In this document: in pieces, positions 1 through 18,654 of the stretch
Numbering within the stretch: position 1 is the stretch's first letter
Layout: each line of letters begins with the position of its first letter
IMG/VR virus record: IMGVR_UViG_648276650_000010
Span: 1 to 19,602 of that record
DNA from: a virus
Lineage: Duplodnaviria > Heunggongvirae > Uroviricota > Caudoviricetes
DNA: 19,602 nt
Strand: one strand, 5' to 3'
Program-made: the position numbers and the translations under genes
The notes under the pieces: model-generated
Told to the model about the DNA's origin: nothing
The model's database searches: none
Seen by the model: only the letters and a program-made list of their open reading frames with translations

Positions 1-2400
1 TTACATCTTGCGTCTGTTGCTGTCTTGAACAATAGCCGCGATGTTCTGTTGCTGACGTTTTAATTGTTCAGCAAACCAACGCTGATCAGTAACATTCCCT
101 GAAACGTGAATACTTGCGTCGATTTTTGTTTCGCCTCCTGTTTTCTGATTATCTAAGAAGTCTTTCAAGTCGCCGTTTGTTCTTTCATCAACGACACGTT
201 CGCCACCATCAAGCAGCCATGTCCCTTCTCTTGGAACATTAGAAATACCATCGTGAGCCATACCAGTAAGATTCACTGATTTCATCTGCATGACTTGTCC
301 GATAACTCTTGCATAACTTGAAGCAGCCAGAGCGTAACCTAAAGGACCAGGATATTTTGCCATTGAAGCAGTTGCTGATTCATAAGCGTTTAACATACCG
401 CTTGCGATTGCTGTTCCTTTTTCAACTGCAAACATTGCTTGAGCAGCTTTAGAGTTTTCACCAGAAATACCGGCTATAACTGCACCCATACCAGAAGCAA
501 AACCGTTATACATCTGGAGTTTTGTCTGAATCTCAGTGAAAGTAATTGCTTTCGATTTAACCGCATAAGCTTGCTCAAGACGCTGTTTCTGTTTGAGATA
601 ATCTTCATAAGAAATCAATTGTCCGTCATATAGCTTTTGGTTCTGTTCTTGCATCTTCTGAAATTGTTCTTCCAACATTTTCTGTTGAATAGCCATTTTT
701 TCTTCATCAGTTGCAAAACCGATAGCATCAAGATTTTTAAGATTAGACATATTACCATCGCCAGCAGTCGCTTTAATTGCTTCAAGACGTTGCTGATGGT
801 CTTTCTGAATAGCTTCTAACTGAGAATTATATTCTTTCTGACCGATAAGCGATTGGGCTTTCTTAGCTTCGAGTTGTTCAAGTTGTTGTTGATATACGAT
901 TTCAAGACTCGACGTAATAGCACCGATTTCTTCAGGACTTGCCATAAGAGTTTGTTTGAATTCTTTGTTTGAATTCTCAAAAAGCATTTTACGACGTTGA
1001 TTTGCCTGTGTAGCGCTGATTATTCCTTTCTTTTCAAGTTCGTCGATTGTTTCAACAGCTTCTCTAACTTTACTGACTTGACTAGAAATAGTTCTGCCTT
1101 CTTGACTGAGAATTGCAGCATCAAGACTGGAAAGATTCTGTAACGCTGTCTGACGCTCTTGCATCATCTTATCATAAGCAGCTTTAGCTTCTCTTGCGGC
1201 TTGTTCCTGTAAGCGTTCCTTTTCTTTCTGAGCAGCTTTAGCTTCTCTTGCTATTTTGTCAGCTTCGCGTTTAGCTTTTTCAGCTTCTTTCTTAGCGTCT
1301 TCGGCAGCTAATGCATCTTTTTTTCTTTTCAGATCTGCGGCAGTTTTAGCATTTGCTTGCTGTAAACGAAGATTTTCATCAGCTTTGATTCTTGCTGCGG
1401 CAATATCTTTCTGAAACTTTTCTTCATCTGCAATTGCTTTTCTACGTTTAGCAAAACCCGCATTAGGCATCCATTCGCCCATTTTGTTAACAGTCGCTTC
1501 GGCAGCCCAATCAGAAAGAGCAGCATCAGGACGCAACGTGCTTAATGTTCCCATGAAGTCTAAAAAGTTACTTGCTGTCCAATCTTTATTAGCAATTTCG
1601 AACAGGTCGTTCATTTTCTTAACTAACGGACTCATAACGTTAACAGTTAGATTATCCAGATTGACGGTTAACGTTTTCATGTTTTCGTCGAATTCTTTAT
1701 ATTCTTTTGCTGTTTCGTTTGTGATATCAACAGAACGATTGTTAATAGCGTTTAATGCGTCTTGAGTTGAACCGTATTTTTCAAGAGTTGAAATCAAATG
1801 TGAAGCATCAGAAGCCATTGACTCCATTCCGTTCACGATTTCAGCTTGACTTGCACCAGCAGCTTTCAGGTCATAATAAGTCTGAACAAGCGCTTTAATA
1901 CCGCCTTGGGCATCGTTGACGTATTGTGTGTACTGTTCAAGACCAATACCCCATTCTTTGAGGTCGTCTGCAATACCGCCATGACCTTCTCTGAATGAAT
2001 CGCCAAGTTTATCTAATGTGTCTTTGTTTAAATCTCCGAAACGGTCAATCTCCATACCTGTTTCGCGAAATTCATTTTTAAGTTGTTGCAGATATTCAAC
2101 TGAAAGACCAGTTGATGTAGAGAGTTGATTGAGTTCTCTCGTTTTTTCTAACGCGGTATTAAGAACAGCTACACCTGCACCTGCTGCCATTCCTGCAATC
2201 CCCAGAGCTTGCATACCCTTGGACATTCCTGCAATACCTGAGATTCCGTTGTTGAGATTATTCAACGGTCCTGTCATATTACTAAAAAGTCCATTAGCTA
2301 CTGAATCGAGTTCATTCAGTTTCTTCATGGACTTGTCAATAGAAATTGATAGGCCTTTGTTATCTCCGTTAATCTCGACGTCATAACGTGATTTAGCCAT
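1..2400 (-). CDS. tail tape measure protein, 799 aa
   Basis: ATG at 2400-2398 preceded by a GGTG Shine-Dalgarno; stop TAA at 3-1. Protein is helical with an EAK/Q-rich low-complexity core and Gly/Ala-rich hydrophobic segments near both ends. Lies immediately downstream of the G/T chaperone pair and overlaps the T-frame stop by 8 nt. Assigned from composition and synteny. Confidence 0.75.
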   Translation of the reverse strand: MAKSRYDVEINGDNKGLSISIDKSMKKLNELDSVANGLFSNMTGPLNNLNNGISGIAGMSKGMQALGIAGMAAGAGVAVLNTALEKTRELNQLSTSTGLSVEYLQQLKNEFRETGMEIDRFGDLNKDTLDKLGDSFREGHGGIADDLKEWGIGLEQYTQYVNDAQGGIKALVQTYYDLKAAGASQAEIVNGMESMASDASHLISTLEKYGSTQDALNAINNRSVDITNETAKEYKEFDENMKTLTVNLDNLTVNVMSPLVKKMNDLFEIANKDWTASNFLDFMGTLSTLRPDAALSDWAAEATVNKMGEWMPNAGFAKRRKAIADEEKFQKDIAAARIKADENLRLQQANAKTAADLKRKKDALAAEDAKKEAEKAKREADKIAREAKAAQKEKERLQEQAAREAKAAYDKMMQERQTALQNLSSLDAAILSQEGRTISSQVSKVREAVETIDELEKKGIISATQANQRRKMLFENSNKEFKQTLMASPEEIGAITSSLEIVYQQQLEQLEAKKAQSLIGQKEYNSQLEAIQKDHQQRLEAIKATAGDGNMSNLKNLDAIGFATDEEKMAIQQKMLEEQFQKMQEQNQKLYDGQLISYEDYLKQKQRLEQAYAVKSKAITFTEIQTKLQMYNGFASGMGAVIAGISGENSKAAQAMFAVEKGTAIASGMLNAYESATASMAKYPGPLGYALAASSYARVIGQVMQMKSVNLTGMAHDGISNVPREGTWLLDGGERVVDERTNGDLKDFLDNQKTGGETKIDASIHVSGNVTDQRWFAEQLKRQQQNIAAIVQDSNRRKM
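1177..1251 (-). repeat. 21-nt exact direct repeat (agcagctttagcttctcttgc) at 1177-1197 and 1231-1251 inside the tape measure gene
   Basis: Read directly from the sequence. Copies are 54 nt apart (in frame) and encode the duplicated peptide AREAKAA within the EAK-rich region. Confidence 0.8.
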
Positions 2401-3099
2401 TATTCACCTTTTTTTGTTGTTTCAGTCTAACTTTGTCTAACAGAGCAGGGTCGAACATCGATTCAACAGCTTTCTTGCGTTTAAGCTCCTGTTGCTCTTT
2501 CTCTTTTTCGATTTCCTCTTGAGACTTAAACACAGAATCTTTAATAAGCAGGTGATCTTTCATGTTGAGCTTTTTCCTATATTCTTTTGTAAGATTAGGA
2601 TTATTAGCTTCGATAGTGTGGACCAAACGTGCTTGATAGAAATCGTTATAGACAGGACCTTGAGGTTCAATAAACGAGTCGAAAAACCATAGTTCGTAAT
2701 ACATCATCACGGACATCTGTTGAATTTCATCGTTAGATAATCCGCGACGTAGCATTGTTCTATACTGAAATGATTTAGCCCAGTTCTGTCTTAGTTCTTT
2801 TCCAGAACGTCTGATTTCTTACTGAGAATACTGGCAGTAGAAACAGCACTAGCAAGAGTTGAACGAACAGTGGTATAAAGTTTCTGAACTTGAGCGATTT
2901 CTTTAAAAACAGGAGTTCCGTCTTCGTGTTGAATACAATTCAGAATCATTCGGTCGTTACGTTCTTCTGTGTTTTCATTTTTGAAATAGAATTCACCGAA
3001 TTCAGATACGGTCATAGGACGAGCATAGAATTTAAAGCCGTTGATTTCTACTGGTTCGCGAGAAGGCGAAAGACTTGCTAACATTTCATCGAAATTCAT
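2393..3099 (-). CDS. predicted G-T fusion chaperone made by -1 programmed ribosomal frameshift
   Basis: The -1 frame is open from a TAA at 2821-2819 down to the stop at 2395-2393, overlapping the last ~8 codons of the G frame. The T-frame stop overlaps the tape measure start by 8 nt. The frameshift itself is inferred; the slippery site is non-canonical. Confidence 0.5.
2791..3099 (-). CDS. tail assembly chaperone, gpG-like, 102 aa
   Basis: ATG at 3099-3097 with an AAGGGA SD-like element; stop TAA at 2793-2791. Sits directly upstream of the tape measure gene, and a -1 frame ORF overlaps its 3' end (classic G/GT arrangement). N-terminal segment VEINGFKFYARPMTVSEFGEF resembles the lambda gpG N-terminus as I recall it. 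Confidence 0.65.
   Translation of the reverse strand: MNFDEMLASLSPSREPVEINGFKFYARPMTVSEFGEFYFKNENTEERNDRMILNCIQHEDGTPVFKEIAQVQKLYTTVRSTLASAVSTASILSKKSDVLEKN
2794..2821 (-). promoter_or_regulatory. candidate -1 frameshift window; best heptamer GGAAAAG at 2797-2803
   Basis: This is the only stretch where the G frame and the T frame are both open. Minus-strand sequence is AGT AAG AAA TCA GAC GTT CTG GAA AAG AAC TAA. It contains the A-AAG lysine slippery motif but not a canonical X-XXY-YYZ heptamer. Confidence 0.35.
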
Positions 3100-3133
3100 T
3101 TTTGTTTCCCTTTGTTGAGTTTTCTTTTATTTA

Positions 3134-3162
3134 TGAAAAAGGGAGCGCGAGGCTCCCTTTTG
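3134..3162 (-). terminator. intrinsic terminator (bidirectional-looking) after the 105-aa gene
   Basis: Stem GGGAGC (3141-3146) pairs with GCTCCC (3152-3157) around a 5-nt loop. Flanked by AAAAA (3136-3140) and TTTT (3158-3161), so it is followed by a U-tract on either strand. Located between the stop at 3163 and the G start at 3099. Confidence 0.65.
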
Positions 3163-3480
3163 TTATTTCCATTGAAAGAAATATCCGTACATTCTGAAAC
3201 CTTTGTGGATATATTCAATCATTCCTAAGTTCTTCGCTTCGGTCTCAAAAAATGGACCTTGCAGTCGAACTGTCTGTCCTAATTTGAAATGACAATTAGG
3301 TTTTTTCTTCTGTGTTGAAACAATAAAAACGTTCTTATCGTTGAACAGATATTTTTTAATTCGCTTATCTTTGATGTGTTCGCAACCGTAAGGAACAGTC
3401 ATTGACTCGGGATTAATCTCGTTAACGTAGATGTCGGCAAGTTCGTCTAATCTGTAAGTATCAAAATCGTGAATGTTCAT
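3163..3480 (-). CDS. hypothetical protein, 105 aa
   Basis: ATG at 3480-3478 with an AGGAGA SD; stop TAA at 3165-3163; followed by a terminator. No recognisable motif. Confidence 0.55.
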   Translation of the reverse strand: MNIHDFDTYRLDELADIYVNEINPESMTVPYGCEHIKDKRIKKYLFNDKNVFIVSTQKKKPNCHFKLGQTVRLQGPFFETEAKNLGMIEYIHKGFRMYGYFFQWK

Positions 3481-3497
3481 TTGTTCTCCTTTTGACT

Positions 3498-4040
3498 TTA
3501 TTTAGTACCCGCAACACGCTTAACGGTTTTGAATATATCGTCAGAGATTTGATTCCATGAACCCAGAGTTTTTCTTCTGTGTTGATTTTTCTTGAATACA
3601 GCAATTAAACGACGGTCTTGCTTTTTAACGTTAGTTTTAATGAGGATCGTTCGAGTTACGCCATCTTTTTTTTGCTTGACAGCTTCAAGATTATTTCTTG
3701 ATTTCAAGTTAGGAATGTTACCGAATTTGTTCTTTGAACCTCTTACACCAGTTGGAACAAACTTGTTAATTCCTTTGTTATCATCAATTAACGGAGCAAG
3801 ATAATCAGCCTGCTTGTCTTTGATGAATATTCTATTTCGTGACCCGTTCTGATCGTATCTGAAACTGAAACCTACTGCGTTCTTAGTGAAATTAACTGGT
3901 CCATCGACTCGTCTGTTGATTTTTCTTTGCAACTCAACAGAAGCGAGTTTAGACGCTTTGGTTACTTTCTTACTGAACACGTCAGATTCTTTGATTCGCC
4001 ATTTTTCAAGGTCTTTCATAACATCTTTTGCTTTTGCCAT
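3498..4040 (-). CDS. hypothetical strongly basic (Lys/Arg-rich) protein, 180 aa
   Basis: ATG at 4040-4038 overlaps the stop of the upstream 65-aa ORF (TAATG coupling). Composition suggests nucleic-acid binding; too basic to be a typical tail tube protein. Function unknown. Confidence 0.6.
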   Translation of the reverse strand: MAKAKDVMKDLEKWRIKESDVFSKKVTKASKLASVELQRKINRRVDGPVNFTKNAVGFSFRYDQNGSRNRIFIKDKQADYLAPLIDDNKGINKFVPTGVRGSKNKFGNIPNLKSRNNLEAVKQKKDGVTRTILIKTNVKKQDRRLIAVFKKNQHRRKTLGSWNQISDDIFKTVKRVAGTK

Positions 4041-4237
4041 TAGTTCACTCCTGACATCAGAAGCGTCCCAAATGTTTTTATCTGTTCTTCGCTGATAAGA
4101 ATCATTTTAGGTGCTTTAATATCGAAAGCTTGCAGAACAGGAACAGCAACAGTGTTATAAGTTATAGTAACGAGAAATAGAACAATAAGATAATCTTTAG
4201 CGTGTTTTGCCAATGCTTGGAGATATTTCATTTTCAT
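4040..4237 (-). CDS. small membrane protein, 65 aa, one predicted TM helix
   Basis: ATG at 4237-4235 with a GGTG SD 5 nt upstream. Hydrophobic segment YLIVLFLVTITYNTVAVPVL. Overlaps the 3' end of the endonuclease gene by 41 nt and is coupled to the downstream 180-aa gene. Confidence 0.45.
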   Translation of the reverse strand: MKMKYLQALAKHAKDYLIVLFLVTITYNTVAVPVLQAFDIKAPKMILISEEQIKTFGTLLMSGVN

Positions 4238-4673
4238 ATTTCACCTTTATTTGGTTTGAGTAGACTTTTTCAAGCTCCTTTTTCGTTTTAAGGTTTGAAC
4301 CTGTAATAGCTTTCATCTCAGAAAGATTTTTTCGAGAGAACGCCTTCTTTAAATCAGGAATAAGTTGTGGATGCGTAGGATTGTCTGAGTAGTCTTTTTC
4401 AAGATACTGAACAAGATTCTTCAAAAACTCGATGTAGTCAATTTTCCCATCGAGACCCGAACGTTTAAACTGATGTTTTATTCTGCCCTCTAGGACGTTT
4501 GCTTGAGCGATTAATAATCCTCTGCATCTGCCTGCGTTAGAGCCTGTTAATATATGGTCATGGTCAAGATGGGCTTTATTAACTTCATGAATCTTTATGC
4601 CAGTTAAAGCACAAAGACCTTTTTGCTTTTGAAAGAGTTCTTGCTTATAAATCGGAATCTCTTTTCTTTTCAT
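4197..4673 (-). CDS. T4 endonuclease VII (gp49)-like nuclease, 158 aa, with degenerate zinc-binding site
   Basis: ATG at 4673-4671 with a GAGG SD; ATGA overlap with the upstream 94-aa gene. The segment HLDHDHILTGSNAGRCRGLLIAQANVLEGRIKHQFKRSGLDGKIDYIEFLKNLVQYLEKDY aligns closely with my recollection of T4 endo VII (HLDHDHELNGPKAGKVRGLLCNLCNAAEGQMKHKFNRSGL...). The catalytic Asp/His/Asn/Glu positions appear retained, but three of the four Cys Zn ligands are replaced (by T, I, A). Confidence 0.8.
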   Translation of the reverse strand: MKRKEIPIYKQELFQKQKGLCALTGIKIHEVNKAHLDHDHILTGSNAGRCRGLLIAQANVLEGRIKHQFKRSGLDGKIDYIEFLKNLVQYLEKDYSDNPTHPQLIPDLKKAFSRKNLSEMKAITGSNLKTKKELEKVYSNQIKVKYENEISPSIGKTR

Positions 4674-4954
4674 TTTCCTCTTAGAACTGCTAGGTCGATA
4701 TCTAGCTTTGCTGTTCTTCCTTCTAAATTCTTCAAATCAGATTTGACCTCTCGAAATTCATCCTGTTGTCGTGTTATATCGCTTATAAGCGAAGCATCTT
4801 TTGCGTCATTAACGGCTATGCTTTTTTCGATGTCTGAGAAACGTTTCTCAAGGTCAATTCGTTTTTCATTGTTTGATTTAATTTCGGCATAAACCCAAGC
4901 CAAGAAACCTCCTAGAGCACCCAAGATGGAAATGATCAGTGCTATATCGACCAT
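4670..4954 (-). CDS. membrane-anchored coiled-coil protein, 94 aa
   Basis: ATG at 4954-4952 with two AAGGAG-type elements upstream. N-terminal hydrophobic helix (IALIISILGALGGFLAWVYA) followed by a charged heptad-like region. Function unknown; i-spanin-like or exclusion-like topology. Confidence 0.6.
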   Translation of the reverse strand: MVDIALIISILGALGGFLAWVYAEIKSNNEKRIDLEKRFSDIEKSIAVNDAKDASLISDITRQQDEFREVKSDLKNLEGRTAKLDIDLAVLRGK

Positions 4955-4999
4955 CTTGAATCTCCTTTTTAAAAGACCTCCTTGTCTTTATTTAGAACG

Positions 5000-7900
5000 T
5001 TATTGTTGTTTACTGATAAAGTAAACTGCTCTTGCTGCGGTCGCATGATTCAAGTCAGCACCGTAACTCAAATCAACAGCTTGTCCCGCATAGATAATGC
5101 CTGTACCACCGTTTGAACCACTCATTGCACTGGTAACTGTTCTTACGATTTCTTGACCGTTCGACATATTAATCCATGCAGTTCCGTAGCCCCAAGCACC
5201 ACCGGAATAAGTTCTGCCTGAAATCGAAAGGTTTGGAATAGAAATTACTCTGTTCCAGTTAACAGCAGGAATATGAACTGTTGTCCACGGATCTATATGA
5301 CCCATTTTGATAACGTCACCTTCAATTCTGTCAGCGTATACAGTTCCTGTGAAATAACCTGAACCGCCTCTGATTTCACCTGCGAAATAACCAGAATCTG
5401 CTTGAATGTTACCTCTGATATTAACGTTTTGGAAAGAAGCCCAACCGTCTTTTCTGATTGTCCAACCTTGAGTACCACCGGAAGGGAACCAGTTATCAGA
5501 AGATATTTCATAAGCAATCTGTGCTGAACCGATCTGAGCATTACCAATTTTCGCAGTAGTAATCGCACCGTTTTCAATCTTCGCGTTGTTAATAGCACCG
5601 TTTTGAATCTTAGCGTTGTTAATAGAAGCATCTGCAATCTGTGCTGAACCGATAGAAGCATTACGAATCATTGCAGAATCCATATAAACTCTGTTATCAG
5701 CGACCATAAACGGAGCAACAGCACCCGCAGGAGTATTGTTATTCGTTATAGCGATTTTATCAGCGTTAAAAACAATACTAGACTGTTTTGAACCGTCAGG
5801 ATTCTTATTAGCCAGCATACTGATACCAGCAACAACACCGTCGGCATTAGTCTGAACTGCCCATTTGCTATTAATCGTTCCTGTTAAGTCGTCAACGCTT
5901 GCTTTTGATTCTTGACTAACTGTTGCAATAGCTGTGTTTGTTTCAGCTTTCAATTGATTAATTGAACTTGCGGTTGCTTGTCTATCATCAGCTTGAGTTT
6001 TTTCAACTTTCGTAATAGCCGAGTTAAGTTTTCCATCAAAGTTAGATTCTTGAATACTGATAGCCTGATTGATAGCGCCATTAGTTTCATTAGTAATCTG
6101 AGTATGAAGTTCGGTGTTTTTCGTCGTGATAGTCTGATTTAATTCAGTAGTAACTTTTTGCTCGGATGCTGTAACTTTCGTATCAGTGTATTTGTTAGCG
6201 AGGTCTAATGCTTCATCGATAGCACCATCAACACGTTTATCCAAATCAAGCAAATCGTTTAACTGTTCTTTCATATCGTCAGTCCACGGAATATCCCATT
6301 TCATATCGATAAACTTCGATTCTGACCAAGTAATCTGGTCTTGTCCGAATACGTCATACCAAGCTGAACGAACATAGAATTGACCATCTTCTAATGGAAA
6401 ATTATCTAAGAACGGACTTGAACTTGAATAAACGTGAACAATTTCATTAAAACTCTGGTCTTTCGCAATATGAACGATTGTGCCTTTGAAGTCAGGAACT
6501 TCAGGCTTATTATCGCGTGGGTCATTCCAAGAGCACATCAGCATTCCAGGACCATTCGAAGCTGTGAAACCTTGAATAGCAGGAGCTTGATTGTTCTTAA
6601 CAGTAATAACAGCAGGATCTGACTTCATACCAGCGTGACCGTATGCAGTAACAGAAACTTTCAATTCACGACTCAGACCATTACCCAAGTTCATATTAAA
6701 GTCATATACAAAACCTAAGTCTTTAGTCTTGTAAATTACAGGACGCTGACCTTCAATTTTGATTTCGTAATATTGAAAAACTTCACCGAATGTCTGTAAC
6801 GTGTCGTCAACATAGAATTTCTGTGCGCTCTGGTCGTCCCAGGCGAATTCAAATTGAGTCTTGTTAGTGGTGTATTGATTTTCAACTGCGTTCACTAGGT
6901 GCAGTCCTGTAACGACTGGTAAGTTATACATAACCTCAGGGTTAACGTTATTGACATAAACCCAATCTGAACGATACACAACACCAGAAGCACAAACACG
7001 AATATCAAATTTCTGATTAGGGTCAAGACTCATAATCAAGAAATAATCGCCTGATGTGAAACCTGCTTGAATCCAAGAGTTCTTACCAGCAAGACTATAC
7101 TGAATATAATAACCTGCGCGATTATAATCAGGTTCAGACGTCCATTGAACTTTCAGAGTTCTTCCTAAAGCTGTTTCAGCAACTGCTTTAACTGTCAGAT
7201 TCTTAGGAGCAATCAGAACAGATTTATTAGGAATGTTGCTTCCTGTGTTATCAGGGTCTTTCGCGTAGTCAAGATTGGTATAAACTTCTTCGATATATTC
7301 AGAAGCAGTAATAGTAACGATACCAGCAGCACCTTTATTCATCGAACGATCGATATTAGTAATACGCCATAATGAATTCACAAGTTCCAGTTCAGAGAAA
7401 TTAACTCTGATAACATCCCAGACCTGTGCGGTATAAGCATCAGCAGTTGAAAAACTAATAACTTGCTTTAACAGAGATTTGTTACGTTCGATTGAAGCAA
7501 TTTTATCCAACTGAGATTTTGATTTCACGAATCTGTAACTGATATCTTTAGCGATAATACGTTTATCTTTCGCGATTGTTCCATCATTTGTTACGTCAGA
7601 CGGATAACGCAGAACTTGGTCAGAATAGTCAATCGACGGATCTTGATATTTCACGTTCAGAGTATTGTAATAATTCTCAGAACCGCCATCGTTTAAGCTA
7701 ACAGTACCAGCGTTAATATTATCTTCGTTGAAGTCATATTGAACAACATCAGGTCCATCGATTCTGCATGTTACTTTACCGAAAGTCTCTGTGATAATAC
7801 CGTTAAATGCACCTGCAAGCTGAGTTAAGTTTTCTTTGAATGAACCGTTCGGGTCAGTTGCACCATCAGAAAATAAACTGTTCAGTTTTGCATATCGAGC

Positions 7901-8689
7901 AGCTTCTTTAAAACTATCAAGGTCGATTTTATCAATCTGAATTCCAAGACCGTATCTATCATTTGTTAGATAATCAACAATCTGACTCGGACCGTTGTTC
8001 GAGGAAACGCGTTCTCCTGTGTTCAGATCTGTAATCAAACGTCCTCTAACGTCAACAGATACTTGACTGTTAGGTTGCAGGATATCAGCTTGGTTTTGAA
8101 GGTCTGAGTTACGTTTGCGCATAACAACACAACAAGCAGCGATGTTATTACCAGTAGCAGAATCAGGCCAGCCAGCATCTGAATTTCCTAGATATTTCTG
8201 AGCAAGAGTAAAAACGTGACCGTATGGCTTACCAGTTGAGAATTCAACTTCAACATATTGCTGATATTCAGCAGCGATTGAACCTTTCGGAAGAACACCG
8301 TCTTTATAAACGCCATCAAGTAAGATTTTCTGATTATCCATATAAAGGTTTTTGAAGCTATCAACTTCACCTTCACAGATTGCAAAGATCTGAACCAAAT
8401 ATGTCGTATCAACGCCAACAGCTTTCCAAACGTTAATCGTACCTGTACGCTGTTCACCATAGATAATAGGAATAACACTTGATGGATCTGACGTTGTTCC
8501 TAATGTCGTTGCTGTGTCTGTGCTGTTAAATCGGGGAACGTTCTGCGCCATCTGAGTTGACATCAAAGCAGAAACAGCAGCAACAGCGACACCAATACCA
8601 ATTGCCAAAGCAAGAGCAGCACCCGCAGCGTAAGCAGCAGCAGCCGCGGAAGCACCTGCGATAATTGCACCAATAGCTACAATAGCCAT
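5000..8689 (-). CDS. lambda J-like tail tip / host specificity protein, 1229 aa, with hydrophobic N-terminal extension
   Basis: ATG at 8689-8687 overlaps the upstream stop (TAATG). The region PIIYGEQRTGTINVWK...YLVQIFAICEGEV matches the conserved N-terminal motif of J-type tip proteins; the C-terminal region (FMVADNRVYMDSAMIRNASIG..., NIRGNIQADSGYFAGEIRGG...) resembles the lambda J C-terminal receptor-binding region as I recall it. Confidence 0.75.
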   Translation of the reverse strand: MAIVAIGAIIAGASAAAAAYAAGAALALAIGIGVAVAAVSALMSTQMAQNVPRFNSTDTATTLGTTSDPSSVIPIIYGEQRTGTINVWKAVGVDTTYLVQIFAICEGEVDSFKNLYMDNQKILLDGVYKDGVLPKGSIAAEYQQYVEVEFSTGKPYGHVFTLAQKYLGNSDAGWPDSATGNNIAACCVVMRKRNSDLQNQADILQPNSQVSVDVRGRLITDLNTGERVSSNNGPSQIVDYLTNDRYGLGIQIDKIDLDSFKEAARYAKLNSLFSDGATDPNGSFKENLTQLAGAFNGIITETFGKVTCRIDGPDVVQYDFNEDNINAGTVSLNDGGSENYYNTLNVKYQDPSIDYSDQVLRYPSDVTNDGTIAKDKRIIAKDISYRFVKSKSQLDKIASIERNKSLLKQVISFSTADAYTAQVWDVIRVNFSELELVNSLWRITNIDRSMNKGAAGIVTITASEYIEEVYTNLDYAKDPDNTGSNIPNKSVLIAPKNLTVKAVAETALGRTLKVQWTSEPDYNRAGYYIQYSLAGKNSWIQAGFTSGDYFLIMSLDPNQKFDIRVCASGVVYRSDWVYVNNVNPEVMYNLPVVTGLHLVNAVENQYTTNKTQFEFAWDDQSAQKFYVDDTLQTFGEVFQYYEIKIEGQRPVIYKTKDLGFVYDFNMNLGNGLSRELKVSVTAYGHAGMKSDPAVITVKNNQAPAIQGFTASNGPGMLMCSWNDPRDNKPEVPDFKGTIVHIAKDQSFNEIVHVYSSSSPFLDNFPLEDGQFYVRSAWYDVFGQDQITWSESKFIDMKWDIPWTDDMKEQLNDLLDLDKRVDGAIDEALDLANKYTDTKVTASEQKVTTELNQTITTKNTELHTQITNETNGAINQAISIQESNFDGKLNSAITKVEKTQADDRQATASSINQLKAETNTAIATVSQESKASVDDLTGTINSKWAVQTNADGVVAGISMLANKNPDGSKQSSIVFNADKIAITNNNTPAGAVAPFMVADNRVYMDSAMIRNASIGSAQIADASINNAKIQNGAINNAKIENGAITTAKIGNAQIGSAQIAYEISSDNWFPSGGTQGWTIRKDGWASFQNVNIRGNIQADSGYFAGEIRGGSGYFTGTVYADRIEGDVIKMGHIDPWTTVHIPAVNWNRVISIPNLSISGRTYSGGAWGYGTAWINMSNGQEIVRTVTSAMSGSNGGTGIIYAGQAVDLSYGADLNHATAARAVYFISKQQ
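5514..5653 (-). repeat. intragenic tandem and direct repeats in the J-like gene
   Basis: Exact 20-nt direct repeat gcaatctgtgctgaaccgat at 5514-5533 and 5634-5653 (120 nt apart, in frame), with 30-nt-period near-repeats at 5561-5620 between them. Encodes a periodic motif (IGSAQIA ... NNAKIQNGAINNAKIENGAITTAKIGNAQ). Confidence 0.8.
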
Positions 8690-9105
8690 TATTTTCTCCT
8701 GTTAAAAATTAATTCAAAATTAAAATCGTTGACGTTTATCAGTTGATATTTATTTTCATGTTCAACTAATGCTCTATTATTAAAAACGATAGATGCAACG
8801 TAATAGACACGGTTTTTATGTTTTTTCTTAATTAAGATAACCGAGCCTGTTTCTATAGTTTCTGATTTCTCAAGATGCGTTTCACACGCTTCGAGAACGT
8901 TATTAAAACCAGTTAGCTCTTTGCAAATCTTGAGACCTTCAGGAATACTCGTGTATTTGTCTTTTAATTTGTCTGTGTATTCAGTAGCACAAACAAGGTC
9001 GATATATTCAGCAACAAGGATATTACAGTCGTTTTGACCGAAAACGTGTTGCTGATTGATATAGCGGTTAAGTAATTTTGATAAGTCAGCTTGAAATTTA
9101 AACAT
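8689..9105 (-). CDS. hypothetical Cys/His-containing protein, 138 aa, translationally coupled to the J-like gene
   Basis: ATG at 9105-9103 with a GAGGTGA SD; stop overlaps the J start. Motif GQNDCNILVAEY plus downstream His residues could fit a papain-like fold (speculative). Position suggests a tail tip assembly role. Confidence 0.5.
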   Translation of the reverse strand: MFKFQADLSKLLNRYINQQHVFGQNDCNILVAEYIDLVCATEYTDKLKDKYTSIPEGLKICKELTGFNNVLEACETHLEKSETIETGSVILIKKKHKNRVYYVASIVFNNRALVEHENKYQLINVNDFNFELIFNRRK

Positions 9106-9132
9106 GTTTCACCTCTGACTTTATTTAGAGCC

Positions 9133-9161
9133 AAAAAAAGACCCCTTGCGGAGTCTTTTTA
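9133..9161 (-). terminator. intrinsic terminator after the 158-aa gene
   Basis: On the minus strand: GACUCC-GCAA-GGGGUC (6-bp stem with one U-G wobble, GNRA loop) followed by seven U. Stem at 9140-9155, A-run at 9133-9139 on plus. Begins 7 nt after the stop at 9163. Confidence 0.7.
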
Positions 9162-9162
9162 A

Positions 9163-9639
9163 TTAATCACTTGATGTCAAATCAACAACACCAGAAACAA
9201 CAGGACCACCATCAACACTCAGTGTCATTGTCAGACCTTGAACTTCTGATTCACCGCCATTATGAACAGCGCTTGACAAGAAGCCGTTATAAACTTTTGC
9301 AACACCCAGTTTTTTAGTAGCATCAATCCAATAAACGATTTTAAACTGACCACGTTTACCATCTTCCGCAAGCTTAATCAGAACATCATGAACGCTTTCT
9401 GGAATATAGTTAACGGTCAAGTCGATATCAGGAACAGAGCCACGACCAACCAGTTTACGGGAGTATTTGTGAGAGAAGTTAGGAGCTGTAATAACTTCGC
9501 GTTCAATACCCGTAGAAGGGAATGCACCAGTTTCAGGAATTTCAACAAACTTTTCTGAATTCAGATCGGTGTTTGCAATTTCTGAGTTATAGAACACACT
9601 GACGTAAGAGCCAGCAAAAATATCAAATTTGTCTGCCAT
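9163..9639 (-). CDS. hypothetical acidic beta-rich protein, 158 aa, probable virion structural protein
   Basis: ATG at 9639-9637 with an AGGAAA SD; stop TAA at 9165-9163. No TM segment or signal peptide. Bracketed by terminator-like hairpins on both sides (stand-alone transcription unit). Fold and function not assignable from sequence alone. Confidence 0.55.
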   Translation of the reverse strand: MADKFDIFAGSYVSVFYNSEIANTDLNSEKFVEIPETGAFPSTGIEREVITAPNFSHKYSRKLVGRGSVPDIDLTVNYIPESVHDVLIKLAEDGKRGQFKIVYWIDATKKLGVAKVYNGFLSSAVHNGGESEVQGLTMTLSVDGGPVVSGVVDLTSSD

Positions 9640-9680
9640 TTTTAATTTCCTATTTGAGTTAATATAGTTTATTTAGCAAA

Positions 9681-9699
9681 GGGGATTTCTCCCCTTTTT
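9681..9699. terminator. terminator-like hairpin directly after the tail fiber stop
   Basis: GGGGA (9681-9685) pairs with TCCCC (9690-9694) around a 4-nt loop. On plus it is followed by TTTTT (9695-9699); on the minus strand only by UUU, so minus-strand termination is probably partial. Confidence 0.5.
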
Positions 9700-9700
9700 G

Positions 9701-12700
9701 TTATTTAGCTTCAAGTTCTTTAACGCGAGCACTTAATTCCTTGATAGCATTAACCAGCAACGCGTTTACAGCAGCAGAGTTAACACCAAGAATTTCGTCA
9801 GGTCCGAAAGAACTAACAGCTTCTGGTAATACTTCTTTCAGTTCTTGAGCAATAATACCTGCTTCACGAACTTCGAATGAATATTCAGTTTTGACTAAAT
9901 CAGATTTCTTATCGTATACGTAACCAGTAAGTTTCTCGACTTTATCAACTGCGTTTTCAATTTCTTCAAAGTTCGATTTCAGACGTTTATCAGAAGTGCT
10001 AACCCATTGGATCGCATTTGCTGTTCCATTACCGAGGAATAGATAGTCTGCACCACCAATGTGAAGTGCAGCCTCGGGAGCAGAACTACCCGGATTATAA
10101 ATGTCCATCGCAGCACCGTATTCTGTGCCCCAATGAACATGTTTCCAGATATTAATACATTTATCACGAGTCTGAGCTTCAACAATCATTCCCGCAGGAC
10201 GATCACGCCACGCTGACCACTGCGGCCAACCGTCAACGACACCTTGAATCATCGCATTGCTTGCCCCGGTTCTAACGTTTCCAACATAAACACCGCGAGA
10301 CTCATTATGGGTGTTAATCGTAATTGACCGATCAATTGTCAAACCAGCTGTGTTAAAGGTTGCGATTTGAATACCATTAGTAAAAATGCTTAAGTTTCCG
10401 TCCGTAACTTGTCGAATACCTGTATCGTTATCACCAAACGCGATTGAGTTTCCACCTAGTACGTTGTCCGTGTTAATACCAAAACTTGTTAAACGATTTG
10501 TTTCAACAGAAGGAGTATTAATTTTTCCAGGAACAGCAAAACGACCATCGATATCAAATTCATAATTAGCCATTTTACCGAACGTCGATTCTTCTTTCGT
10601 CCCAACACGAAGAATTCCTTTGCCCCATGAATTAGCTGGTCCTCTAATAGTTCCTAATTCAACAACAGTAGAGAATCCGTGTCCTACGGAAACAGAGTTC
10701 ATCGAATATCCGGGATAATAATCACTTTCACCAGCAACTGCTCCGAAGTTAATCTGCATAGGAGCATTTTGTCTCCATTGATTAGCGTAAGCATGATCAT
10801 TGGTTGCTGCCCATCTTGCACCATCAATTTGAATTGTATTATGCTGAATATCCATCGCGGTATTAGTACCAGTCTGAACCGTCACGGATCCGTTAGTTCT
10901 AAGAGTAACACCAGATGACGTAGAGAAATCATTTCTCATATTCTGAGACCAGACAATATCGAGATTCTCACTTGTCTTGCCAAGAATCCAGGTATTATTG
11001 CGACCGTCCATATTGCCAGACATATAACTTGCCTGATTCGACGCAGGAATATTCAACTGAATAGCATTAGATTCGCCGTTGACAGAAACACCACTTGCAA
11101 GATTCAATCGACCATTGGTGTTTAATGAACCCATCCAATATTCAGGAGTATCACCATGAAACCAACATATAGAGTTATCCAGCCTATCGTCAGGATGATT
11201 AGCCATTGCCAACTCATGATAAATGGATCCAGCACCAACGGCTCTAACTTTTCTTAAATGATTTGATTGTTGCTCAGGAGTGTTCCAGTCGGGTAAGCTT
11301 TCCGAGTCATACCATCCGTAAGGCTTATTATTATAAATCGTTTTATAGAAACTTGCAGGGCCAGCAACACCAAGACCTTCTTTAGTATCAATATAAGTTC
11401 TGCCTGAACCTCTCAGATAATGATTATATTTTCCACCATTAACTAATCCGAAATAAGTCGTGGCGTCACCAATGTTATTACCGTCGGTTGTCGTATCGAT
11501 ATTAATTAATGAATAACCTTCAGGAGCCATCAGATTCGAATCACCATCATCACTTCTGAAACGGAAATGAGTTTTTCTATTAAAGTAGTTTTCAGATCCT
11601 GCAATAGAAGCTGTTACAACGTTATTTGAATAGAAGTTTAACCATCCGTCTTCTCTCCATTTAAAACCAGTGTCGGAATCACCAATCGCGATAGAGTTTA
11701 AACCCAGTGAATTTCCAACGGCAAAGTTGCTTGCAACGGACATTAAAGGAGTTGTTACTGCATCAGTGATTCTAGCTTGACCTGAAATATCAATTGACAT
11801 TCCTCTGCCTGTTTTTCCCCAAGTCATGGTCATTAGATCTAATGCGTCGGTTCCTTCGTTAGCATCACGACGAAATAACAGTCGATCATCCGTATCCGTT
11901 GCGTATGCAATTTGATGAATAGTCTTTGAAGTTCTGCCGTGGTTTTCAATACTCAGAACATCACCGTTATTACCAGCAGGTGTAACTTTCAAAGTTCCTG
12001 CGTATACATTACCAGCAGCATGAACAGAAGGAACAGTTAAGTCGCCAGTCATCGTGTCGCCAGCTTTATTAACTTTGGTGTCAATCATGTCTTTCAGAGT
12101 CTGATTATCAACAGTCAAACGGTCATTAACTGCTTTAATCTTTTCGTCAGCATCAGCTTTATTCGCATCAACTTTCGTATTAATAGCCGTGTCGTTCTGG
12201 TCAACTTTTGAATTCAGATTATCAACGCGAGTGTTAATAGCAGCGTCGTTAGCATCAACTTTCTGTTCGAGTTTCGTCAGGTCAGCACTTGAACCTGTTT
12301 GAACTTTGCTGATTTCAGAATCAACGTAATCTTTACGCGTAGCGCTATCAGGAGCAACAGGAGCAGCAGGCAAAGATAACTGACCATTACCGTTAAGCAC
12401 GAAGTCAGAACTCTCTCCTGTACCTTTTCCTTTCGCTACCGTAACACGAAGTTCACCTTTAGAGTCTGTCTGAGCAGGAGAACTAATACGTGCTTTTGCT
12501 TTGTCGTGTTCATCAGCAAAAACAATATCGCTTTTATCAAGATTTTTTAAAGTCAGATTAGAATCGGATTCAATATCACTTGCTTTAATTTTTCCAGTAA
12601 AGGTCTGACCGCCTTCAACAACAGCATCAGCACCATTACCGATGTTAATAACAGCGTCACCGAATTTAGTAAAAATCTTTTTATCGGCTAAGTTAATAGC

Positions 12701-12784
12701 GATTTCACCATCAAGCATGTTTTTCGCTTCTGGCTTTCTTCCGGCGACGTCTGTTCTATAATGTTTAACTTTATTATTTGCCAT
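9701..12784 (-). CDS. tail fiber protein, 1027 aa, with C-terminal intramolecular chaperone (peptidase S74-type) domain
   Basis: ATG at 12784-12782. N-terminal fibrous repeats (VDxNDxAINTxVD) and a DTMTGDLTV motif typical of phage fibers. C-terminal WVSTS-DKRLKSNFEEIE...YVYDKK...EAGIIAQELKEVLPEAV...NAIKELSARVKELE matches the auto-cleaving chaperone domain seen in endosialidase-type tailspikes and L-shaped fibers. Confidence 0.8.
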   Translation of the reverse strand: MANNKVKHYRTDVAGRKPEAKNMLDGEIAINLADKKIFTKFGDAVINIGNGADAVVEGGQTFTGKIKASDIESDSNLTLKNLDKSDIVFADEHDKAKARISSPAQTDSKGELRVTVAKGKGTGESSDFVLNGNGQLSLPAAPVAPDSATRKDYVDSEISKVQTGSSADLTKLEQKVDANDAAINTRVDNLNSKVDQNDTAINTKVDANKADADEKIKAVNDRLTVDNQTLKDMIDTKVNKAGDTMTGDLTVPSVHAAGNVYAGTLKVTPAGNNGDVLSIENHGRTSKTIHQIAYATDTDDRLLFRRDANEGTDALDLMTMTWGKTGRGMSIDISGQARITDAVTTPLMSVASNFAVGNSLGLNSIAIGDSDTGFKWREDGWLNFYSNNVVTASIAGSENYFNRKTHFRFRSDDGDSNLMAPEGYSLINIDTTTDGNNIGDATTYFGLVNGGKYNHYLRGSGRTYIDTKEGLGVAGPASFYKTIYNNKPYGWYDSESLPDWNTPEQQSNHLRKVRAVGAGSIYHELAMANHPDDRLDNSICWFHGDTPEYWMGSLNTNGRLNLASGVSVNGESNAIQLNIPASNQASYMSGNMDGRNNTWILGKTSENLDIVWSQNMRNDFSTSSGVTLRTNGSVTVQTGTNTAMDIQHNTIQIDGARWAATNDHAYANQWRQNAPMQINFGAVAGESDYYPGYSMNSVSVGHGFSTVVELGTIRGPANSWGKGILRVGTKEESTFGKMANYEFDIDGRFAVPGKINTPSVETNRLTSFGINTDNVLGGNSIAFGDNDTGIRQVTDGNLSIFTNGIQIATFNTAGLTIDRSITINTHNESRGVYVGNVRTGASNAMIQGVVDGWPQWSAWRDRPAGMIVEAQTRDKCINIWKHVHWGTEYGAAMDIYNPGSSAPEAALHIGGADYLFLGNGTANAIQWVSTSDKRLKSNFEEIENAVDKVEKLTGYVYDKKSDLVKTEYSFEVREAGIIAQELKEVLPEAVSSFGPDEILGVNSAAVNALLVNAIKELSARVKELEAK

Positions 12785-12796
12785 TTTCTTTATCCG

Positions 12797-13822
12797 TTAA
12801 AATACTCCTGCGTCTAAGGTTTCTCCTAACGCTACACAATTAATCTCTAATGGCGTTGGTTTATTACTTGGAGAATAGACTTCTTTGCCTTTGACCTTGA
12901 CAGAAGTTGAGTTAATTTCATTACTATTTAGAGCCAAGATTTCACCTTGTGGCGCAGAAATCTTTTTACGAACGTTCAGATATTCCTGAATAGTCAAAGA
13001 TCCTTTGAGTTCTCCACCAGTAATAGGCAAAGCATTAATATCTTCAGGAGTTGGACGTTCAAGTTCTGTATAGACTTTGACCCACGGAGATTCAGTAACA
13101 GTTTCACCGCTTTGTTGTTTGTTTCTGATTCTGATGCTTGGATTACCGACTGACGAACCAATAAGCTCCCAACCTTGACCATCAGGATGCTGAATAGCCA
13201 TAGCAGACGTGCCAGAGTTATAAGGGTTATCGCTGTTTGTTGCATCGACTGTTACACATCTGTTACCAGTTAATAATCCTAAGTCTTTAACGCCTGCGAT
13301 TTCTTCTGTACCAGCACCAATACCATAATCGCCAACGTTTAACGGAACTGAGAATTCAGCAAAACCTGTAAACAACTGACCATCAGGAGAAAGATTAAAA
13401 GTTGTTGTAACGACTGAGTTAGCCGAACCTGATGTTTCTTTCTTCGTTACATAAGCATTAAAAATATGATAAAGACCAGCATCATTATCTTTCTTTGTTT
13501 CTCCATCGATAACATAAAGACTTCTGAATCTAAGGAGTTTCTTTTCCATAAGAGCTTCATCAAGCAACTGATAAACTGGGTCAGAACTGTCTTCAAATAA
13601 GCTTATTGAAGTGTCGTTAATTGTTACGTCACCTGAAAGTTTCGTTGTGAAATCGGTTCTGTAATCTTCTAGTGTCTGAACTTCTTTTCTAAATCCGATA
13701 ACAGGGAATGCAGCCAGTTTATCAGTGCTTACATAACCTGGGTCGTTATATCCTGGGATTTCAACGATTAGCGGATTAACTGAAACTCTGACGTTATTTC
13801 CTACAAAAATATCGTTTGTCAT
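12797..13822 (-). CDS. major tail protein, gpV-like, with C-terminal Ig-like extension, 341 aa
   Basis: ATG at 13822-13820; stop TAA at 12799-12797. Position is right after the gpU-like gene. The segment NDTSISLFEDSSDPVYQLLDEA...LLRFRSLYVIDG resembles the lambda V pattern [23 protein letters not shown]...AYKIRFPNG as I recall it; C-terminal ~100 aa is beta-rich and Ig-like. Confidence 0.6.
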   Translation of the reverse strand: MTNDIFVGNNVRVSVNPLIVEIPGYNDPGYVSTDKLAAFPVIGFRKEVQTLEDYRTDFTTKLSGDVTINDTSISLFEDSSDPVYQLLDEALMEKKLLRFRSLYVIDGETKKDNDAGLYHIFNAYVTKKETSGSANSVVTTTFNLSPDGQLFTGFAEFSVPLNVGDYGIGAGTEEIAGVKDLGLLTGNRCVTVDATNSDNPYNSGTSAMAIQHPDGQGWELIGSSVGNPSIRIRNKQQSGETVTESPWVKVYTELERPTPEDINALPITGGELKGSLTIQEYLNVRKKISAPQGEILALNSNEINSTSVKVKGKEVYSPSNKPTPLEINCVALGETLDAGVF

Positions 13823-13829
13823 TTTAGTC

Positions 13830-14228
13830 TCACATTAAGTATTCGAAAGTTAAAATTATTTGTGCGCTAACATGACCATTTGATGCTTCACTATCATAAT
13901 CAGTGAAGCTCGAACTTGGATAAATCTTATCGATTTTAAATGGGATAAGTTTTTCATGATTAGCTTTAATAGAAATTAAGTCGTAAACGGCTTTGTGAAC
14001 GCCTGTTTCGCTTTTCTCTGAGAAAATATCAATCGTAATACTAAGAACACTTGCAAGTTTCGATTGCAAACCGATTCGCGTATATTCTTCTGTCATTCCT
14101 GGAATCATTACTTGAACAGGTTCTTTAACACCAGTTGTGAAAGCGTTTTTGACGTATTTCAGATTAAGTTCTTTAACGATTATTTCTTCCAGAGCGCGTT
14201 TAATTCCTAAACGTGGCAGATTAGTCAT
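13830..14228 (-). CDS. tail terminator protein, gpU-like, 133 aa
   Basis: I place the start at the internal ATG at 14228-14226, which overlaps the upstream stop by 8 nt; the ORF-track start at 14306 would overlap the upstream gene by 86 nt. C-terminus DYDSEASNGHVSAQIILTFEYLM resembles the lambda gpU C-terminus (DY..DDAG..SADLTYVITYEM) as recalled. Confidence 0.6.
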   Translation of the reverse strand: MTNLPRLGIKRALEEIIVKELNLKYVKNAFTTGVKEPVQVMIPGMTEEYTRIGLQSKLASVLSITIDIFSEKSETGVHKAVYDLISIKANHEKLIPFKIDKIYPSSSFTDYDSEASNGHVSAQIILTFEYLM

Positions 14229-14517
14229 AGAATGATGTCTCCTGTTCGCCTTTAAATGCCAGATAACAATTAGCAAGTCCTGAACCATCATTAACAAGAT
14301 ACGCAATGGTATACAGAATCTCGTTTAATAGAACTTCATCTTCTTGCTTAACTTTATTGATATCAGCGGTTATATAGATTGTCTCGCTTACTTGTCCGTT
14401 ATCGTTGTTAATCTCAATTTCAACAATACCGAGTTCATCAGAATCGTTAATTTTGATTTTCTGTCCGAAACGAGTTAAGAAAGACTGTTTTTGTTTTTCT
14501 GAATATGGAAAAATCAT
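14221..14517 (-). CDS. head-tail joining (neck) protein, 98 aa
   Basis: ATG at 14517-14515 with an AAGGAGA SD; first gene after the capsid terminator. Small and acidic, in the position of a head completion/connector protein. No specific family assignable. Confidence 0.5.
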   Translation of the reverse strand: MIFPYSEKQKQSFLTRFGQKIKINDSDELGIVEIEINNDNGQVSETIYITADINKVKQEDEVLLNEILYTIAYLVNDGSGLANCYLAFKGEQETSFYD

Positions 14518-14552
14518 GTTGTCTCCTTTTTATTATATTTAGTCCAGAAACG

Positions 14553-14576
14553 AAAAAAGGACTCCCGAAGGAGTCC
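14553..14576 (-). terminator. strong intrinsic terminator after the major capsid gene
   Basis: On the minus strand: GGACUCC-UUCG-GGAGUCC (perfect 7-bp stem, UUCG tetraloop; stem 14559-14576) followed by UUUUUU (14553-14558 on plus). Lies about 50 nt downstream of the capsid stop. Confidence 0.85.
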
Positions 14577-14597
14577 TCTGATTATTCAGCAGTTTCA

Positions 14598-14627
14598 GCT
14601 TTCGCTTTCGCTTTTGCTTTTGCTTTT
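14598..14627. repeat. five tandem hexamers (GCTTTC x2, GCTTTT x3 on plus; AAAAGC/GAAAGC on the mRNA) immediately 3' of the capsid stop
   Basis: Read directly from the sequence. Starts 1 nt after the stop codon (14629-14631) and ends before the terminator hairpin. Confidence 0.8.
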
Positions 14628-14628
14628 C

Positions 14629-16533: not shown

Positions 16534-16548
16534 TACCAGTCCTCTGTT

Positions 16549-16580
16549 GGAGCGTCTTTCGACGCTCTTTGTTTTTCTGA
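16549..16580. promoter_or_regulatory. stable stem-loop in the portal-capsid intergenic region, terminator-like only in plus orientation
   Basis: GAGCGTC (16550-16556), loop TTTC, GACGCTC (16561-16567), followed on plus by TTTGTTTTT. On the minus-strand mRNA it forms a GAAA-loop hairpin 17 nt upstream of the capsid SD with no U-tract after it. Confidence 0.45.
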
Positions 16581-16592
16581 ATGTATTTAGTG

Positions 16593-18143: not shown

Positions 18144-18634
18144 GATGGATTCGTGAACCTCGCTTTAATAGTAACAATCGGAGATTTACCGTTTGCCATT
18201 TGTTCTGACTTAATCAGATTTGCTAAGTTAGCTAAAAGTCGTTTTCGAGCCATAAGCAGCGAATCAAGCGTTTCATAAACGAATGATTTACCGTTAATAC
18301 TCATTTGTTGAATAGCTTCTTCGTTACTTGTCAGACGATACTGAATAACTGTATCGATATCGTTAATCATTTCTCTGAGTTGTTCTCTTTTCGTTTTTGA
18401 AACGAATGGTGATTTCACTTTGATAATGCTGTTACTGATAAGCGCACCTTCATAGAGAACAACAACAGAAAAAGTTCCTTCGATAAAATCTGATGTGTCC
18501 ACCGAGATATTCGCTGGACAATCAGTTTGAGAAAACAATTTAGTTTCAGTTGAGCCTATGGAGACTGTTGCACCTTCAGGATTATAAACAGCGAGTTTTT
18601 CACCGATGTAAATTTCTGAATTTGATTTTTGCAT
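18140..18634 (-). CDS. gpW-like head-tail joining protein with ~85-aa N-terminal extension, 164 aa
   Basis: ATG at 18634-18632 with a GGAGAA SD; lies between terminase and portal as lambda W does. The C-terminal ~75 aa (INGKSFVYETLDSLLMARKRLLANLANL...) resemble lambda gpW ([23 protein letters not shown]...) as recalled. The N-terminal beta-rich half has no counterpart in 68-aa gpW. Confidence 0.55.
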   Translation of the reverse strand: MQKSNSEIYIGEKLAVYNPEGATVSIGSTETKLFSQTDCPANISVDTSDFIEGTFSVVVLYEGALISNSIIKVKSPFVSKTKREQLREMINDIDTVIQYRLTSNEEAIQQMSINGKSFVYETLDSLLMARKRLLANLANLIKSEQMANGKSPIVTIKARFTNPS

Positions 18635-18654
18635 TGAGTTCTCCTTTCTTATAT

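Follow-up and report, generated by a model that had tools for sequence, protein, structure and literature searches.

The stretch of DNA analysed here, termed the window, comprises positions 1 to 19,602 of the Caudoviricetes record IMGVR_UViG_648276650_000010 (19,602 nucleotides) and contains, within a late operon, a gene for a homolog of endonuclease VII (endo VII), the Holliday junction resolvase gp49 of phage T4. A single open reading frame (ORF) on the minus strand coincides exactly with positions 4197-4673, the stop codon lying within this range, and encodes a protein of 158 amino acids. The parts of the gene corresponding to the zinc site, the active site and the C-terminal region of T4 endo VII are as follows, with positions counted from the first letter of the window.

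4197..4673, minus strand: endonuclease VII homolog, zinc-knuckle-less form, 158 amino acids
4602..4613, minus strand: former first zinc knuckle, C21-A-L-T24 (T4 C23-L-I-C26), codons TGT GCT TTA ACT
4554..4571, minus strand: catalytic cluster H35-L-D-H-D-H40 (T4 H38, D40, H41, and H43), codons CAT CTT GAC CAT GAC CAT
4500..4511, minus strand: former second zinc knuckle, I55-A-Q-A58 (T4 C58-N-L-C61), codons ATC GCT CAA GCA
4488..4499, minus strand: N59 to E62 (T4 N62 and E65), codons AAC GTC CTA GAG
4251..4373, minus strand: C-terminal helical region, residues 101-141, approximately the T4 endo VII dimerisation domain (PF09124, helix prediction)

The window protein is near-equal in length to T4 endo VII (PDB codes 1en7, 1e7d, and 2qnc; Pfam families PF02945 and PF09124), with 158 amino acids compared with 157, and resembles it in domain order, in the catalytic residues, and in a conserved helical block following the His-Me finger. 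The phmmer match to PDB code 1e7d has an E-value of 2.1e-27 and pairs residues 10-122 of the query with residues 12-126 of T4 gp49; the identity is ~45% over ~113 residues reaching into the C-terminal domain, and the residues after ~122 diverge. The PF02945 profile scores 41.6 bits (cut-off 23.6), PHROG 423 "endonuclease VII" matches with an E-value of 4e-36, and T4 endo VII is the best structural match to the predicted model of the protein. Helices are predicted in the C-terminal part at residues 104-113, 117-124, and 131-147, and precomputed matches to PF09124 are present for several members of the clade of 23 proteins described below. Neither a hydrophobic segment nor a signal sequence is present in the protein, the maximum Kyte-Doolittle value over 19 residues (KD19) being 0.38. 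The HNH profile PF01844 gives no match to the protein at E <= 0.1, and no NCBIfam match was found for endo VII or the neighbouring genes. At the level of sequence comparison these results confirm that the protein is a full-length, genuine homolog of T4 endo VII with a similarity exceeding the generic HNH motif. A preliminary description of the window had recognized an endo VII core and named limitation to a generic motif as a condition under which the assignment would fall.

The positions of the zinc ligands were read from the alignment with T4 gp49, the T4 numbering of ligands and catalytic residues having been verified against the T4 sequence. No gaps occur inside either ligand motif. T4 GKCLIC pairs with GLCALT in the window protein, and T4 RGLLCNLCNAAEG pairs with RGLLIAQANVLEG, placing C21 at C23, T24 at C26, I55 at C58, and A58 at C61. 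Substitution has removed three of the four ligands (C26T, C58I, and C61A), both cysteines of the second knuckle being exchanged for aliphatic residues, and only the equivalent of C23 remains. The preliminary description had given the two pairs as C..T and I..A, which the gap-free alignment reproduces exactly, and had spoken of the zinc-ligand cysteines as lost, which applies to three of them and not to all four; its proviso that proper gapping might restore the cysteines is ruled out, since the ligand motifs contain no gaps. The catalytic residues it listed are all present, with T4 D40, H41, H43, R54, N62, and E65 identical to D37, H38, H40, R51, N59, and E62 of the window protein. As related in PMC6083498, the mutagenesis of Giraud-Panis et al. 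(1995) found the T4 endo VII mutants C23S and C61S each inactive and unable to bind DNA, and C26S and C58S tolerated singly but not combined. Survival of only C23 among the four ligands, taken together with this account of the T4 mutants, rules out a Zn(Cys)4 site of the T4 type in the window protein as judged from its aligned residues.

The same loss is shared by close relatives. In a search covering 5.8 billion proteins, 24 close homologs (52-98% identity) were recovered from Escherichia coli, Enterobacter, Klebsiella, and Pantoea, and 22 of these together with the window protein form an alignment of 23 full-length prophage proteins of Enterobacteriaceae, termed here the clade. The first ligand position is cysteine in all 23 members, the second is threonine in 19 and serine in four, the third (T4 58) is leucine in 11, isoleucine in six, cysteine in two, histidine in two, and threonine and valine in one each, and the fourth (T4 61) is alanine in 21 and valine in two. 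The residues equivalent to T4 H38, D40, H41, H43, and N62 are unchanged across the clade, E65 is retained in 22 of 23 members with aspartate in P0001, and within the HLDHDH cluster only the non-essential second aspartate (T4 D42) varies. The ORF is uninterrupted in all of the 20+ homologs. The ratio of nonsynonymous to synonymous substitution rates (dN/dS) is 0.024 against an endo VII copy 97.7% identical and 0.11-0.20 against copies at 52-72% amino acid identity (pairs with an estimable dS), and the gene is thus under strong purifying selection. The absence of the zinc ligands does not reflect decay, given that the loss is common to the clade, the catalytic residues are retained, and dN/dS is low.

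The distribution of the zinc site in the wider family was determined by searching 1.84 billion cluster representatives (clusters at 50% identity) exhaustively with HMMER, which gave 267 matches at E <= 0.001. The best 150 of these 267 were aligned to T4 gp49, and 149 of them lie outside the cluster of the window protein itself. Of the 149, 72 carry the complete set of four ligands, either as C,C,C,C or as C,C,H,C, one has three, and 71 lack two or more, the remaining five being fragments. D40, H41, and R54 are kept in every scorable sequence of both zinc classes, and D40, H41, and H43 occur together in 143 of the 144 representatives that could be scored, the exception being a zinc-less one in which H43 is gapped. 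N62 is found in 71/71 zinc-less and 71/72 four-ligand representatives, with aspartate in the single exception. The three ligand positions lost in the window protein vary together and are the sole strongly discriminating columns when zinc-bearing and zinc-less representatives are compared by mutual information. A rough Fitch count on the neighbour-joining tree gives at least nine switches of zinc state. Nine of the 10 zinc-less representatives that were looked up come only from metagenome or sequencing-run assemblies; cultured phages were considered as carriers of zinc-less forms, and the best matches checked (Pseudoalteromonas RIO-1 and HP1, and Alteromonas H4/4) are zinc-bearing.

The zinc-less state is therefore not rare, about half of the representative clusters sharing it. 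That 71 of 149 clusters lack the knuckle and retain the active site indicates that zinc-free versions are evolutionarily viable, and that Zn(Cys)4 defines the T4 subtype and not the whole homologous family. The published family alignment gives a highly conserved CX2-4C...DHDH...CX2C pattern (PMC6083498), the cysteines of which are missing from the window protein. The D-H-x-H ... R ... N constellation of the window protein is shared with F-CphI and other "DHHRN" homing endonucleases and with Hpy99I. In the classification of His-Me fingers, endo VII is placed among the knuckle-bearing proteins and many other His-Me fingers are without the knuckle (PMC5714182); the naturally knuckle-less HNH nucleases among these have the same beta-beta-alpha-Me core with no structural zinc but belong to other families. 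A literature search found no account of zinc-less endo VII homologs, its coverage being incomplete and so not proof of absence, and loss of the zinc site is common in the family and apparently unremarked in print.

The gene lies between two small membrane-protein genes in a long series of genes, every gene of the window being on the minus strand. The immediate neighbours and the order of transcription are as follows.

4670..4954, minus strand: upstream 94-amino acid protein, transmembrane helix at the N terminus plus coiled coil, PHROG 1009 (function unknown)
4040..4237, minus strand: downstream 65-amino acid single-transmembrane protein (ORF and hydrophobicity)
3498..4040, minus strand: basic 180-amino acid protein (p180) with an isoelectric point of 10.7, the synteny anchor, always after the block
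Minus strand, first in order: terminase large subunit (partial), head-tail joining protein, portal, protease-capsid fusion
Minus strand, second: small genes, gp37-like long tail fibre, 158-amino acid tail protein, DUF6950
Minus strand, third: 1229-amino acid tail-tip protein of J type
Minus strand, fourth: 94-amino acid membrane/coiled-coil protein, endo VII, 65-amino acid membrane protein
Minus strand, fifth: basic 180-amino acid protein, 105-amino acid protein (p105)
Minus strand, sixth: tail assembly chaperone, 120-amino acid protein, 799-amino acid tape-measure-like protein

The stop codon of the 94-amino acid ORF overlaps the endo VII start codon as ATGA, and an AAGAGGA ribosome-binding site precedes this start. 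The 65-amino acid ORF starts 41 nucleotides before the endo VII stop, and its own stop overlaps the ATG of the next gene. Each of the two small flanking ORFs has one strongly hydrophobic stretch of 19 residues (Kyte-Doolittle ~2.2), and PHROG 1009 is the only family to which either could be assigned. The overlaps visible in the sequence show endo VII to be translationally coupled to the two small membrane-protein genes. A scan for promoters and terminators around endo VII found none on the coding (minus) strand, and the base composition around the gene shows no break, leaving a recent insertion of the gene (a moron) unsupported. Rfam and tRNA scans of the window gave no matches, and a megablast search of window positions 3000-6000 against the phage collection likewise gave no match.

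The block formed by the J gene, a transmembrane-protein gene, endo VII, a second transmembrane-protein gene, p180, and p105 recurs in prophages of E. coli, Enterobacter, and Pantoea and in IMG/VR contigs. Across the related loci the identities are 56-74% for endo VII, 60-80% for p180, and 56-74% for J; the divergence of endo VII tracks that of its neighbours, and its position is therefore long-standing and vertically inherited. The endo VII gene is found in 18 of 19 related loci, the sole absence being in the locus termed L019, and p180 is detected in all of them, with no confirmed match on scanning genome contigs with the p180 alignment. In the relatives the upstream slot holds a gene of similar size to the 94-amino acid ORF with 22-35% identity, no similarity being detectable to the counterparts in L016 and L017, and a tblastn search of the 94-amino acid protein against phages gave no match. 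An ORF of 55-70 amino acids occupies the downstream slot in loci L006, L007, L010, L024, and L025. The small membrane-protein genes and the block are located at 2653-3144 and 4030-4506 in L019, at 10862-13723 in L024, and at 6721-9723 in L025, and in these three loci a T4-type lysozyme gene closes the block after p180 and p105.

The element carrying the window genes is a prophage of ~36 kb that has a serine recombinase and lies between ldtB and ybiT, and is found in 6 of 5,426 complete E. coli genomes; it is otherwise known only from IMG/VR contigs. The endo VII gene is thus encoded by a temperate prophage of siphovirus type, inside a tail/late operon, in a difference with T4. The terminase at the other end of the window is of the lambda-gpA type. 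The order of the tail genes is unusual, with the chaperone, the 120-amino acid gene, and the tape-measure-like gene (window 1-3099) downstream of J (5000-8689) on the minus strand and at the end of the prophage adjoining the host ldtB gene. One ORF of 634 amino acids at window 14629-16533 joins a prohead protease of HK97 type (Peptidase_S78) to the major capsid protein, and RefSeq labels this fusion inconsistently, one genome naming it "prohead protease" and another "major capsid protein". The prophage DNA has a G+C content of 33-43% (window 2000-7000), compared with ~51% for E. coli, which suggests that the phage arose in, or has long been associated with, hosts of lower G+C content, or that it has a compositional bias of its own. 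In locus L001 (E. coli 2021CK-01361, NZ_CP107720.1 3255331-3298331) the copy is 100% identical over window 3000-6000, with the J protein at 99.4%. The L001 prophage is defective, with insertions of the IS5-family element ISEc68 in the J gene and the terminase gene, and a reverse transcriptase of the retron Ec67 family lies just past it.

Two relatives in the same slot retain the zinc site. The metagenomic protein P0025 (locus L025) has the ligands C,C,H,C with the site intact, and its gene follows a tail-tip gene and lies between genes of 101 and 55 amino acids, after which come p177, p104, and lysozyme. The endo VII of Escherichia phage DCP80 (XNX25187.1, locus L024) has the arrangement CLLC...CPSC with the ligands C,C,C,C, and the gene order is J, a 153-amino acid membrane/coiled-coil protein, endo VII, a 57-amino acid membrane protein, p183, p99, and endolysin. 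Both proteins are 41-49% identical to the window protein and share with it the slot between J and p180-p105; they differ in the full zinc knuckle, in the tape measure gene upstream of J (L024 2520-10827 and L025 1-6615), as in most siphoviruses, and in the lysozyme gene after the block. The DCP80 record (PQ671644.1, 10899-36141 for L024) is filed under Straboviridae and has motA and ndd of T4 type together with the siphovirus-type block of tape measure, J, endo VII, and lysozyme. The record is 141 kb in length compared with ~170 kb for genomes of T4-like phages, and two phages may have been joined in it as a chimeric assembly.

In the neighbour-joining tree the zinc-less clade is monophyletic with P0025 as its sister, making P0025 the nearest relative of the window protein outside the clade. 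The next-outer group, composed of T4, DCP80, and others, is zinc-bearing except for P0036, which is probably misaligned. The occupation of the same slot by the zinc-bearing P0025 and DCP80 genes argues for loss in place, and the knuckle was probably lost once, in the ancestor of the zinc-less prophage clade, to judge from the aligned proteins and their tree. The Klebsiella aerogenes proteins P0004 and P0006 still have cysteine at T4 position 58 and look like leftovers of the transition from the zinc-bearing to the zinc-less form. The shared slot also shows that the placement characterizes the phage group, zinc-bearing members included, and is not specific to zinc-less proteins. Of the earlier remark that the gene sits unusually for a DNA-processing enzyme, inside a tail operon and coupled to membrane proteins, the location in the late/tail operon and the coupling to two small membrane-protein genes hold.

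We consider it fairly probable that the window protein is an active branch-cutting nuclease of T4 type, independent of zinc and produced late in infection, that rids concatemeric DNA of junctions and branches before terminase acts. The protein would act as a His-Me finger nuclease on branched DNA with the catalytic metal site of D37, H38, H40, R51, N59, and E62 untouched, and would resolve junctions as a dimer with no bound zinc. The Zn(Cys)4 knuckle would have given way to ordinary side-chain packing, with threonine, isoleucine or leucine, and alanine replacing C26, C58, and C61. Co-transcription and translational coupling within the operon, where the gene is bounded by the tail-tip gene and the 180-amino acid gene, would supply the enzyme while concatemeric phage DNA is being packaged, as the late-operon position implies. 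T4 endo VII clears DNA branches before packaging, a role that would suit the position of the window gene, and by analogy with gp49 Holliday junctions and other branches that block terminase would be trimmed. Conservation outside the three ligand positions is high, and the aligned sequences give no particular reason to expect altered dimer architecture or specificity.

Several observations weigh against this reading. The inactivity of T4 endo VII with C23S or C61S alone means that activity in the window protein needs compensation, and a mutual information search for compensating substitutions found none strongly co-varying beyond the three ligand positions. The match of the C-terminal region to PF09124 is weak (E 0.003 and 18.1 bits, under the cut-off of 22), and AlphaFold models carry no metals, so a confident fold is uninformative on zinc. 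T4 E86 is the residue changed in the classic E86A enzyme, which is cleavage-defective and binding-proficient; its equivalent is E82 (window 4428-4430), and this position is aspartate in 11, glutamate in five, valine in four, serine in two, and threonine in one of the 23 clade members, varies in the wider family too, and so does not belong among the conserved catalytic residues. L019, a distant relative, has no endo VII and its two membrane-protein genes abut, which indicates that the enzyme is dispensable in at least some phages of this type and that the gene was gained or lost at the slot at least once.

The arrangement in L019 is also the pattern expected of a free-standing gene inserted between formerly adjacent genes, and the gene could on this basis be a selfish homing endonuclease with the Endo VII motif ("DHHRN" type), such as F-CphI, or a domesticated descendant of one, cutting a specific site in phages without it. 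The example of F-CphI demonstrates that homing is possible with the Endo VII catalytic motif (PMC6083498). This origin is unlikely given that the window protein is collinear with gp49 throughout, having an N-terminal catalytic domain and a gp49-like helical C terminus, whereas the motif of F-CphI is C-terminal and follows a different N-terminal part. The presence of the gene in every related locus but L019 with divergence tracking that of its neighbours, the dN/dS of 0.02-0.2, and the lack of a compositional break also oppose it. A decaying or catalytically dead remnant, in which the zinc site was lost as folding or cutting was no longer needed, would be consistent with the inactivation of T4 endo VII by single substitutions of C23 or C61, as recounted in PMC6083498, and with the damage to the prophage in some host strains, where insertion sequences lie in J and terL. 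Strong purifying selection, the frame intact in 20+ homologs with essentially invariant catalytic residues, and ligand replacements that are conservative and patterned and not random make such a remnant highly improbable.

Two further explanations keep the protein functional and differ on its metal or its partners. A structural metal site may have been rebuilt around C21, with further ligands supplied by, for instance, C50 of the AGRCRGLL strand or histidines close by. In favour of this, C21 is invariant in 23/23 clade members despite the loss of its three partners, and C50 is present in 20 of 23, with two members having isoleucine there keeping cysteine at the T4 C58 position. Cysteine at the T4 V53 position occurs, however, in 17 of 73 zinc-bearing as well as 28 of 71 zinc-less representatives, and C50 was rejected as a compensating new ligand because cysteine there is common in zinc-bearing relatives too. 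The clade member P0005 has threonine at the C50 position and no cysteine at 58, a third or fourth ligand is not conserved, and aspartate replaces C23 in 17/71 zinc-less representatives, so that a rebuilt site is unlikely. Alternatively, the nuclease may serve not packaging but a function linked to lysis, or one in exclusion, together with the neighbouring membrane proteins, for example by degrading host or competitor DNA late in infection. Translational coupling to two single-pass membrane proteins is consistent with this, and the lysozyme gene that follows p180 and p105 in L019, L024, and L025 means that the block may belong to a lysis cassette or adjoin one and hints at a lysis-related role of the flanking proteins. 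The missing hydrophobic segment or signal sequence in endo VII and the occurrence of the membrane proteins without it in L019 argue against such a role, as does a search with the PADLOC defence models, which gave nothing above noise and only a 30-residue PtuB fragment with an E-value of 0.005. Adjacency in a phage late operon is in addition weak evidence of physical partnership, and we regard this possibility as a slim one.

Returning to the zinc-independent branch-cutting nuclease, the loss of the knuckle might itself be adaptive and not neutral, an essential late enzyme having become independent of zinc in a lineage of Enterobacteriaceae prophages so that packaging works in zinc-starved hosts. 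Zinc-free (C-minus) paralogs of bacterial ribosomal proteins exist and would provide a parallel. We consider this improbable; if true, the approximately even division of the endo VII family into zinc-bearing and zinc-less forms would represent repeated selection of this kind.

The window enzyme is a modest variant and no new kind of enzyme, mechanism, or system. Its interest lies in the family signature, as the Zn(Cys)4 site of T4 endo VII, the textbook junction-resolving enzyme, has been treated as conserved and essential, and this signature is corrected here by relatives ~45% identical to T4 with the same catalytic residues that have dispensed with the zinc site under strong purifying selection. 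Zinc-independent resolvases might also be easier to produce as reagents. The zinc-bearing (P0025 and DCP80), partial (P0004 and P0006), and zinc-less proteins form a natural series in one genomic slot that could show how a zinc site is converted to side-chain packing, and about half of the sequence diversity of the family is zinc-less, nearly all of it metagenomic among the representatives looked up.
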